NCBI GenBank assembly: GCA_025999335.1
Contig: AP024681.1
Location: forward strand, 322,565-386,564
DNA from: Candidatus Parcubacteria bacterium
GTDB taxonomy: Bacteria; Patescibacteriota; Minisyncoccia; UBA6257; HR35
Direction of reading: 5' to 3'
Length of the DNA stretch: 64,000 nt
Below are positions 40,309 through 41,747 of this stretch, in pieces. A program made the position numbers and the translations under genes. Under the pieces are notes generated by a model, which saw only the letters and a program-made list of their open reading frames with translations, was not told the DNA's origin and made no database searches. Numbering within the stretch: the first letter of the stretch is position 1; every line of letters starts with the position of its first letter.

Positions 40309-40983
40309 TTAATATTCTGTTTTGCGAGTTTTTAAAATAAGTTTTATTATATAAATAAAACCAGCAATTACTATCCCGCCAGTCGCTATTAACCAGATAA
40401 GTGCATAGTAAAATAAATAATCAAGATATTTATAAACTATCTTCGGAACAACGACAATAGAAGCAAAAAATTCTACAACTACCGAAAGAATTAAAAATAT
40501 TAAACTAAATATTATACGGATAATAAAGGAACGTTTTATTTTTTTTAAAAAATCATATTTTTTATAGAAACCATAAAAGCTTAATTTTATAAATTTTATA
40601 AATATAAATGCAACTCCTATTACTACGATAAATAATATAAAAAATGGGATAGGAAAATAAGAATTAGAATATAATGCTTTCTCGATCATTGCCTGAACCA
40701 TCAATATGACATAAAATATCCCTATAATAAACAGTGATAATATAACTGGCATAAAAAACCCAAATAAATAAGCAGTTCTTGTTTCTTTTGTTTGATTTGA
40801 GGATTCTGTTTCCTCTAATTGCTGTTTTTTAACTAAATTACTTAAATTTCTGCCTGATAAGTGAGAAATAGTTAAAGTAGATATTAAACACGAACAACAA
40901 CAACAGCAACAAGCACCACAAGTCGGCGTTGACGAACTAACTCTTATTTTTTCATTATCAAACTGGGATATGAGTCGGAGCAT
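40309..40983 (-). CDS. 4-TM membrane protein with N-terminal poly-Cys, streptolysin-S-like segment (candidate TOMM substrate 1)
   Basis: 224 aa. The N-terminus MLRLISQFDNEKIRVSSSTPTCGACCCCCCSCLISTLT has 8 Cys at residues 22-32 (nt 40888-40920). Four long hydrophobic helices follow, separated by basic loops. Confidence 0.75.
   Translation of the reverse strand: MLRLISQFDNEKIRVSSSTPTCGACCCCCCSCLISTLTISHLSGRNLSNLVKKQQLEETESSNQTKETRTAYLFGFFMPVILSLFIIGIFYVILMVQAMIEKALYSNSYFPIPFFILFIVVIGVAFIFIKFIKLSFYGFYKKYDFLKKIKRSFIIRIIFSLIFLILSVVVEFFASIVVVPKIVYKYLDYLFYYALIWLIATGGIVIAGFIYIIKLILKTRKTEY
40915..40983 (-). repeat. 69-nt exact direct repeat, copy 1 (5' end of the Cys-rich ORF)
   Basis: Identical base for base to 41679-41747. 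Identity begins at the ATG, and the 5' flanks differ. Confidence 0.9.
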
Positions 40984-41024
40984 ATTTTTATATAATTCTT
41001 TGTTAATAATAATAAAAAACTATT

Positions 41025-41747
41025 TTAATAAATTTTAACTTCATCGTTGCCATTAGATTTAAAATGTCGATTTTTCAAAATAAAGTTTATAGTTATATAA
41101 ATAAATCCAATAATCGCTATACTGATGATTGATATTAAAGATATTATTATGTAACGCTCTAACAAAGTAAGATTAAATAATAATAGTCCAATAAAGAAAC
41201 CGGTAGCAAAAAATTCTATAGTACCAGCAAGAGCTAATAATCCGATATTGTTAATTATGATTTTGATTAAAGTAGAAAGCTTTGTTGTTTTAAAAAAATC
41301 ATATTTTTCGTTGAAACCATGAAGACTTAGTTTTATAAATTTTATAAGCAGCAATAAAACAATTATTGCTGTTGCATATAATGATGTACCATAAAAGATA
41401 TCGGGAGTAAGAAGATATTTTCCATTTTCAATTATTGTTATAATTGCAGATAAAGTTATTATTATTACAGCGCCCGTTGTTACAGCAAGCAATGATACTA
41501 TAAGTAACATAAAAAAGCCGAAAAGATAAGCGCTTTTAGTTTCTTTTACTTCAATTGATGGCGTTGCTTTCTCTAGTTGCTGTTTCTTAACTAAATTACT
41601 TAAATTTCTACCAGTAATATGCAACACAGCTAGAGTAGATATTAAGCACGAACAACAACATGAGCAACAGGCACAAGGACCACAAGTCGGCGTTGACGAA
41701 CTAACTCTTATTTTTTCATTATCAAACTGGGATATGAGTCGGAGCAT
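41025..41747 (-). CDS. 4-TM membrane protein with N-terminal poly-Cys segment (candidate TOMM substrate 2)
   Basis: 240 aa. The N-terminus MLRLISQFDNEKIRVSSSTPTCGPCACCSCCCSCLISTLA has 8 Cys at residues 22-34 (nt 41646-41684). It is a paralog of 40309-40983. Confidence 0.75.
   Translation of the reverse strand: MLRLISQFDNEKIRVSSSTPTCGPCACCSCCCSCLISTLAVLHITGRNLSNLVKKQQLEKATPSIEVKETKSAYLFGFFMLLIVSLLAVTTGAVIIITLSAIITIIENGKYLLTPDIFYGTSLYATAIIVLLLLIKFIKLSLHGFNEKYDFFKTTKLSTLIKIIINNIGLLALAGTIEFFATGFFIGLLLFNLTLLERYIIISLISIISIAIIGFIYITINFILKNRHFKSNGNDEVKIY
41679..41747 (-). repeat. 69-nt exact direct repeat, copy 2
   Basis: Identical to 40915-40983. Confidence 0.9.

Follow-up and report, generated by a model that had tools for sequence, protein, structure and literature searches.

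A YcaO gene cluster of a Parcubacterium with two streptolysin-S-like precursors predicted to be tethered to the membrane

Locus and precursor proteins

A stretch of 64,000 nucleotides from Candidatus Parcubacteria bacterium (assembly GCA_025999335.1, contig AP024681.1, positions 322,565 to 386,564; hereafter the window) contains a block of five genes on its minus strand, in a genome of low G+C content (about 29%). Two open reading frames (ORFs) for proteins carrying a Cys patch ahead of four predicted membrane helices are followed by the genes of a SagC-like protein, a YcaO protein and a SagB-like protein (Table 1). The two ORFs probably encode paralogous substrates of a thiazole/oxazole-modified microcin (TOMM) system of the streptolysin S type in which the precursor is an integral membrane protein. 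The coordinates given in the initial annotation are correct, the two genes occupying 41747..41025 (240 residues) and 40983..40309 (224 residues), and paralogue 1 is identical to the hypothetical protein 'Candidatus Parcubacteria bacterium KatS3mg097_361' (P0003).

Table 1. Features of the five-gene block, with positions counted from the first nucleotide of the window
Feature	Position	Strand	Basis or remark
Putative precursor, paralogue 1, 240 residues: leader, Cys patch and four-helix membrane domain	41025..41747	-	ORF
Putative precursor, paralogue 2, 224 residues: leader, Cys patch and four-helix membrane domain	40309..40983	-	ORF, hydropathy, AlphaFold2
Putative leader of paralogue 2, residues 1-21, MLRLISQFDNEKIRVSSSTPT	40921..40983	-	conservation in 85-89 relatives
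Putative core of paralogue 2, residues 22-43, CGACCCCCCSCLISTLTISHLS: Cys patch and uncharged Ser/Thr-rich hydrophobic stretch	40855..40920	-	
Putative core of paralogue 1, residues 22-45	41613-41684	-	counterpart of paralogue 2 core
Basic linker of paralogue 2, residues 44-71, GRNLSNLVKKQQLEETESSNQTKETRTA, predicted cytoplasmic	40771..40854	-	5 Lys and Arg
Basic linker of paralogue 1	41532-41612	-	counterpart of paralogue 2 linker
Predicted four-helix membrane domain of paralogue 2, residues 72-217, including basic loop 2-3 (residues 133-153)	40333..40770	-	
Predicted four-helix membrane domain of paralogue 1	41073-41531	-	counterpart of paralogue 2 domain
SagC-like protein, putative leader-binding partner of the cyclodehydratase, 275 residues	39362..40189	-	TIGR03882, TIGR03603
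YcaO/SagD-like putative cyclodehydratase, 418 residues	37978..39234	-	PF02624, TIGR03604
SagB-like putative flavin mononucleotide (FMN) azoline dehydrogenase, 240 residues	37251..37973	-	PF00881, TIGR03605, PDB matches
tRNA-Pro(GGG), downstream edge of the block	37170..37245	+	ARAGORN

The two paralogues are 54% identical overall, with a similarity that is unevenly spread. Codons 1-22 are identical at all 66 nucleotides (41682-41747 and 40918-40983), synonymous differences start right after codon 22 (five in the next 23 codons), and between residues 22 and 71 the proteins differ at 15 aligned positions while eight further codons differ synonymously only. In the membrane part, 89 of the 152 aligned positions differ. 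The identity of the first 22 codons suggests either gene conversion or a constraint acting on the nucleotides of the 5' end, for instance from mRNA structure or the initiation of translation. Starting at residue 22, the core of paralogue 2 contains eight Cys within 12 residues, and its G23-A24 pair precedes CCCCCCSC, a run of eight contiguous heterocyclisable residues; the corresponding run of paralogue 1, CGPCACCSCCCSC, is interrupted. The Cys runs are encoded by TGT/TGC repeats, which may be prone to slippage, and a two-codon indel makes the runs unequal in length in the two paralogues (40855-40920 and 41613-41684).

Over roughly their first 45 residues, both proteins look like a streptolysin S precursor. 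The streptolysin S model TIGR03602 matches the 224-residue protein with 17.2 bits (E 0.0036), below its cut-off of 35 bits, and does not match the 240-residue protein. Searches of Pfam and NCBIfam with the membrane domain returned nothing recurrent, and single weak matches to DUF2207_C, CrgA, MAG0920 and 'CCC motif membrane protein' were judged compositional. A lipoprotein or signal-peptide reading of the N-terminus was rejected, as no hydrophobic region precedes the first Cys and there is no lipobox.

Of the three other proteins, the YcaO protein matches PF02624 (E 2.2e-37) and the SagD family model TIGR03604 (E 4.8e-54, 183.7 bits for a cut-off of 219 bits), with a secondary match to TIGR03266 (E 6.9e-16). 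The SagC-like protein is recognised below cut-off by TIGR03882 (E 2.9e-6) and TIGR03603 (E 3.2e-4), and the SagB-like protein, of nitroreductase fold, by PF00881 (E 2.1e-14) and TIGR03605 (E 2.6e-18). Searched against PDB sequences, the SagB-like protein retrieves the thiazoline oxidase BmdC (8e-12) and McbC (1.7e-7), the YcaO protein only MJ1094, and the SagC-like protein only weak winged-helix-like matches. A YcaO enzyme and a partner of E1-like or RiPP recognition element (RRE; RiPP, ribosomally synthesised and post-translationally modified peptide) type adjoin a gene whose putative substrate product combines a leader with a core rich in Cys, Ser and Thr, the arrangement by which TOMM clusters are recognised; a discrete cyclodehydratase (the C and D proteins) and a dehydrogenase (the B protein) both occur in the cluster, as expected for the streptolysin S type. 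None of the three enzymes contains a membrane-grade segment (maximum Kyte-Doolittle mean 1.07-1.56). YcaO chemistry is ATP-dependent. Since the enzymes are devoid of membrane segments and ATP is needed, the Cys patch must be on the cytoplasmic side, at any rate during its modification, which agrees with the access of cytosolic YcaO enzymes proposed by the initial annotation.

Family, gene neighbourhoods and topology

When 1.84 billion cluster representatives (50% clustering) were searched exhaustively with a profile, 89 representatives were recovered at E<=1e-3, including 37 at E<=1e-10. Nearly all are 140-285 residues long and nearly all are aligned from residue 1. A word-indexed protein search found only the two proteins of the window and one close relative, so that the family is visible by profile search alone, and scans of genome and metagenome contigs added one locus each, the contig of L006 being too short to display neighbours. 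The named sources are Parcubacteria, Dojkabacteria, a metagenome-assembled genome (MAG) of Clostridia and Candidatus Sigynarchaeota, an Asgard lineage, and all the proteins are annotated as hypothetical.

The members share an N-terminus that reads M-[IL]-[KR]-L-[VI]-[TS]-Q-F-D, then R-x-S-x-A-T-P-T-C-G-x and eight Cys, before a stretch rich in Ile, Val, Thr and Ser that ends with A-R-N (residues 44-46). The consensus core is C-G-x-C8 followed by mixed Ile/Val/Thr/Ser. Columns Q7, C28 and C32 are invariant, columns L4, F8, D9, T19, P20, C22, C25 and C29-C31 are conserved to at least 90%, and 73 of the 89 members have their first Cys at residue 22. All these columns lie within residues 4-32, and the mean column identity collapses beyond about residue 50. 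Leader and core are thus conserved and the membrane domain is not (mean column identity 11%), although hydrophobic helices are always found in the C-terminal part. Their number varies from two to five, with three in 46 members, four in 27 and two in 11 according to a crude caller. TIGR03602 is the only recurrent NCBIfam match (23 of 85 members at E<=0.01); the best E value, 8.4e-5, is weaker than a score of 35 bits would give, the bit scores of members not being listed. One member, P0044, has a precomputed weak match to PF27786 ('Bacteriocin_streptolysin_S_pre'). The possibility that P0014 and P0044 are genuine free short peptides was considered and rejected, P0044 being a fragment that runs into a contig end.

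A precursor gene (A) adjoins genes for a YcaO protein (D), a nitroreductase-fold protein (B) and a C-like protein of 250-275 residues in the window and in the loci L001, L005, L007-L009, L010, L012, L013, L014 and L016, of which L005 comes from a MAG with a 63% identical YcaO protein, L007-L009 from Clostridia and L016 from Dojkabacteria. The gene order differs between loci, with arrangements A-A-C-D-B, C-A-D-B, A-D-C-B and A-D-B-C. When the ORFs of eight loci were compared all against all, only the precursor, C, D and B families were common to them, and no protease or exporter was conserved. L010 resembles the window in having two divergent precursors in one cluster (P0013 and P0012, at 2470-3108 and 6212-6817), but there the YcaO gene and an inserted gene for pyruvate kinase lie between them.

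The Asgard member P0047 (240 residues; L011, 8001-8723, Candidatus Sigynarchaeota) has a single called helix, and no YcaO gene lies within 4-8 kb of it; a second member, P0024, comes from the same organism. Either the enzyme set of these archaea is encoded elsewhere or the motif is put to a different use.

The initial annotation proposed that both proteins of the window cross the membrane four times with the N- and C-termini inside. Hydropathy bears out the four helices, with strong peaks in each protein (Kyte-Doolittle means over 19 residues of 2.4-3.0 in the 224-residue protein and 1.9-2.8 in the 240-residue protein), and the positive-inside rule supports the predicted orientation. Lys and Arg (K+R) number 3, 5, 1, 7, 2 and 3 in the leader, linker, loop 1-2, loop 2-3, loop 3-4 and C-tail of the 224-residue protein, and 3, 6, 1, 4, 1 and 3 in those of the 240-residue protein, which places 18 of them inside and 3 outside in the former, and 16 and 2 in the latter. 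Calculated per loop residue, the difference in density within the two proteins is no more than modest, as their outer loops are short. The opposite orientation would require the translocation of a 70-residue tail and of the very basic loop 2-3. The strings quoted in favour of this topology (KKQQ and KETR/KETK ahead of helix 1, KLSFYGFYKKYDFLKKIKRSF and KLSLHGFNEKYDFFKTTK in loop 2-3, KTRKTEY and KNRHFKS in the C-tails) are all present. By contrast, the description of the 70 or so residues before helix 1 as hydrophilic does not hold for residues 22-43, which are uncharged and marginally hydrophobic.

AlphaFold2, run for the 224-residue protein with an alignment of 85 sequences, gave a model of mean predicted local distance difference test (pLDDT) score 77 with helices at 64-105, 114-143, 151-183 and 187-221, matching the proposed four, and an additional one at 28-57. 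With three sequences only, the pLDDT was 55 and the model was unusable.

The charge bias extends to the family. With helices called alike in every member and K+R counted in the loop flanks, the side of the linker preceding helix 1 has 0.207 K+R per residue vs 0.074 on the other side (odds ratio 3.3, Fisher p 3e-34, for representatives less than 50% identical mutually but not phylogenetically independent). Individually, 73 members agree with this bias, 11 disagree and one is tied. As an internal consistency check, the C-tail contains on average 2.5 K+R when the number of helices is even and 0.88 when it is odd. These distributions suggest, as the conserved feature, that the tail bearing the leader and the Cys patch enters helix 1 on the cytoplasmic side. 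An inner C-terminus is no family trait and applies to the two proteins of the window, because most relatives have three helices.

Mechanism and rival explanations

The reading favoured here, with a probability of about 60%, is that of a membrane-tethered streptolysin-S-like polythiazole made on the cytoplasmic face by the adjacent SagC-like, YcaO and SagB-like enzymes. Gene content, family conservation, charge bias and the soluble nature of the enzymes are direct results of the analysis. Residues 1-21 would act as a leader bound by the SagC-like protein, and the YcaO enzyme would use ATP to cyclodehydrate the Cys run, and perhaps Ser and Thr, from residue 22 on. The FMN dehydrogenase would then oxidise the rings to thiazoles, possibly with oxazoles in the following Ser/Thr-rich stretch. 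This chemistry, deduced from homology, would be entirely cytoplasmic, as the four-helix domain is predicted by the positive-inside rule to insert with the N-terminus inside, and with the C-terminus inside as well in these two proteins. Leader and core leave the ribosome first and would stay in the cytoplasm, so that the C, D and B proteins could act during or after the insertion of the helices. Together they would form a cytoplasmic tail of roughly 70 residues, tethered about 30-40 residues from the membrane, and the flat, uncharged polythiazole would most likely stay attached and settle in the inner leaflet next to the bundle of helices. As no release machinery is conserved, retention is the simpler reading; argued from an absence of genes, it is also the weakest step, and the product may be released later. 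The gene content, with only A, C, D and B conserved in eight loci, fits the view of the initial annotation that the product is a modified membrane protein rather than a secreted toxin. Computation thus supports that interpretation as far as it goes, and the underlying observations in part.

Several findings weigh against this picture. None of the four components reaches the cut-off of its streptolysin S model, so that the chemistry is deduced from distant homology. In the closest relative (L001, Logan SRR277300xx), the precursor gene (910-1652) is split by a frameshift into pieces of 168 and 75 residues, the second corresponding to helices 3-4, and the YcaO gene (2754-4009) is split into 91 and 285 residues; the system is therefore dispensable there. 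The same 168-residue product occurs in four samples, and the cluster appears to be decaying. An ATP-binding cassette (ABC) transporter gene lies 1.4 kb downstream in L014, the sole locus with one close by, and in the window an M50 protease (48884-49492) and FtsH (49496-51313), encoded 7-9 kb off, could release the peptide. The core stretch is marginally membrane-competent, with Hessa sums of +0.75 kcal/mol in the 224-residue protein and +1.4 kcal/mol in the 240-residue protein, a family median of +0.76, and values below zero in 25 of the 89 members. In the unmodified protein, AlphaFold2 predicts residues 28-57 as a confident helix (pLDDT 83-90).

Some of these points would fit a releasable toxin, whose membrane domain would anchor it only for a time or would be a fused module for immunity or export, and whose free polythiazole would leave once a housekeeping or distantly encoded protease had cut near A-R-N and/or after the leader. 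The core does resemble that of a known secreted cytolysin, ATPTC and ARN are conserved beyond the apparent needs of a passive tether, and the membrane domain is variable in sequence, like bacteriocin immunity proteins. Candidate machinery exists in the M50 intramembrane protease and FtsH of the window and in the ABC components found within 1.4-3 kb of the cluster in L014 and L013. No protease or transporter is, however, shared by the eight compared loci and none adjoins the operon here, while a crude motif scan of the ORFs of at least 90 residues in the 64-kb window detected neither the LSGGQ ABC signature nor a CaaX-like motif. A tail held inside would moreover strand the product at the wrong face of the membrane, from where no exit route is known, and release as a toxin is considered unlikely, although it deserves to be kept in mind.

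The behaviour of residues 22-43 (22-45 in paralogue 1) raises a different question, namely whether this stretch is itself a membrane helix, with the leader outside and the Cys patch in the bilayer, either in the unmodified protein or after removal of the leader. It has no charged residue and gives a fifth hydrophobic peak, weaker than the others, whose Kyte-Doolittle mean of 1.8-1.9 exceeds the classical threshold of 1.6; in the family, the stretch is uncharged in every member (median uncharged length 30 residues), has a mean of 1.6-2.4 in nearly all of them and is bracketed by T-P-T and R-N. These features, like the AlphaFold2 helix, are compatible with a fifth membrane-embedded or membrane-dipping segment, and the model suggests that, before modification, the patch may be more than a loose cytosolic end. 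The charge bias of the family does not discriminate between four and five segments, as the linker is cytoplasmic in both. Against the fifth segment, the leader has a median of 3 K+R, which disfavours translocation of the N-tail, and the Hessa sums of both proteins are positive. Soluble ATP-dependent enzymes would also have no access to a buried patch and an external leader, yet no part of the protein is more conserved than the leader, and a run of thiazoles cannot form a helix. This topology is accordingly held to be improbable.

That the poly-Cys stretch could be a metal-binding or redox motif of a membrane protein, with YcaO genes nearby by coincidence, is very improbable. Copper-binding Cys-rich membrane-anchored proteins do exist (bufferin fusions, TIGR04222; PMC12452194), and the Asgard protein P0047 has no YcaO gene at hand. 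On the other side, the YcaO, C and B genes are syntenic with the precursor in all bacterial loci with enough flanking sequence, despite a shuffled gene order and very low identity, and the residues upstream of the patch are conserved in the manner of a leader peptide.

The membrane-tethered polythiazole may be extended to a broad, undescribed class, a proposal that attracts slightly more doubt than confidence. Members of the class would be ribosomally made membrane proteins carrying permanently about 8-10 consecutive thiazoles at a cytoplasmic N-terminus, modified by a minimal YcaO/C/B set and never released, so that the polyazole would be a built-in membrane-active or membrane-inserted element of the producer's envelope instead of an exported toxin. 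It would cover Parcubacteria, Dojkabacteria, Clostridia and possibly Asgard archaea.

Genomic surroundings and relation to known systems

The genes around the block are of housekeeping or envelope types. On its downstream side, the gene of a predicted surface protein of 2410 residues (29647-36879, plus strand) ends about 370 bp before the convergent B gene. Behind a signal-like N-terminus, this protein combines four carboxypeptidase-regulatory-like domains with an fn3 domain, a Thr-rich linker and, at its C-terminus, a pair of peptidoglycan-binding domains; its gene region has the highest G+C content of the window (0.37-0.39). Upstream of the precursors, a hairpin rich in G+C (GGCGA...TCGCC), which T/A runs flank on both strands, lies at 41795-41835, between the precursor operon and a divergent gene of the TIGR00375 family, and overlaps the region just upstream of the TTG start called at 41843. 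It may be a bidirectional terminator, or the start of the TIGR00375-family gene may be miscalled; a scan for promoters and terminators yielded counts no different from those of shuffled sequence. Further on, an 829-residue ClpB-like AAA+ protein with AAA_2 and ClpB_D2-small domains is encoded at 43121-45932 (plus strand), preceded and overlapped by an ORF for a hydrophobic protein of 112 residues. The hydrophobic N-terminal region of the ClpB-like protein resembles a membrane anchor, which is unusual for a Clp-type ATPase. ARAGORN also identified a tRNA-Ile with a UAU anticodon (20609-20682, plus strand). Such tRNAs are uncommon in bacteria, where AUA is usually decoded by a lysidine-modified CAU tRNA.

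Among known systems, the closest is streptolysin S (SagA with SagBCD). Both have an N-terminal leader followed by a contiguous Cys-rich and then a Ser/Thr-rich uncharged core, together with a discrete C protein, a D protein of the YcaO type and an FMN dehydrogenase as B protein, and TIGR03602-03605 are the best curated models. The precursors described here are nevertheless four to five times longer, with 224 and 240 residues and a four-helix domain vs a peptide of about 50 residues, and their core is not C-terminal, as about 180 residues with four membrane helices follow residues 22-43. Besides scores below the curated cut-offs for all four proteins, they differ by a leader signature of their own (L-x-x-QFD ... 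ATPTC) and by the lack of a CaaX-like protease (SagE) and an ABC exporter (SagGHI) among the five genes, whereas every cytolysin cluster of a 2015 survey included both (PMC4603692). In the cytolysin group, the core consists of a Gly and, after it, at least 10 contiguous heterocyclisable residues (PMC4603692). Judged on its genes, the system would thus be SagA/BCD-like in chemistry and not a member of the cytolysin family.

Microcin B17 (McbA with McbBCD) follows the same three-enzyme logic, and the B protein matches McbC. McbA, a small soluble peptide, has McbEF as its exporter and is processed by TldD/E. No McbEF or TldD/E-type genes occur here, and the core is poly-Cys vs Gly-Ser-Cys in McbA. 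The thioglycine of McrA, formed by YcaO and TfuA, offers another parallel, as YcaO acts there on a full-length protein and not on a short peptide bound for export. In that case thioamidation with TfuA takes place on a soluble enzyme, whereas here a C protein and a dehydrogenase point to azoles and the substrate is predicted to be a membrane protein.

As for the fusion itself, the only precedent found for a RiPP core joined to a membrane protein is that of the membrane proteins associated with oxidative enzymes that depend on multinuclear non-haem iron (MNIOs). In TIGR04222 proteins and MerC-bufferin chimaeras, which are polytopic, a Cys-rich segment is the presumed substrate of the neighbouring MNIO; this part is C-terminal and predicted to be periplasmic, and the role is linked to copper (PMC12452194). 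Unlike it, the patch described here is N-terminal and predicted to be cytoplasmic, and its enzymes are of the YcaO/C/B type. No TIGR04222 match was obtained for the proteins of the window or among the recurrent NCBIfam matches of the family, and no MNIO gene was seen in the examined loci. No description of the family turned up in the searchable literature, which leaves out most subscription journals, and the term undescribed is therefore provisional. The enzymes and their chemistry are known; the architecture of the substrate and the logic of the cluster are new. A survey of Candidate Phyla Radiation (CPR) and DPANN genomes merely counts the YcaO clusters of CPR genomes (PMC12153355).

Chemistry of the TOMM or streptolysin S type has so far been understood as making small exported peptides. 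The predicted N-in tether is conserved in a family of some size that crosses domains and whose minimal module has four genes. If the favoured reading is true, azole-forming RiPP chemistry extends to the permanent modification of membrane proteins. This would also explain CPR YcaO clusters that genome mining flags without a precursor, since finders of short precursor ORFs would miss such genes. With its five genes in 4.5 kb, the operon is a concrete and cheap test system, and it prompts one to ask why organisms with very small genomes should retain it. Were the polyazole a permanent element of the envelope, it might, among other roles, serve as a rigid hydrophobic rod dipping into the bilayer or spanning it, bring about controlled self-permeabilisation, or act at the site of host contact in episymbiotic CPR bacteria.

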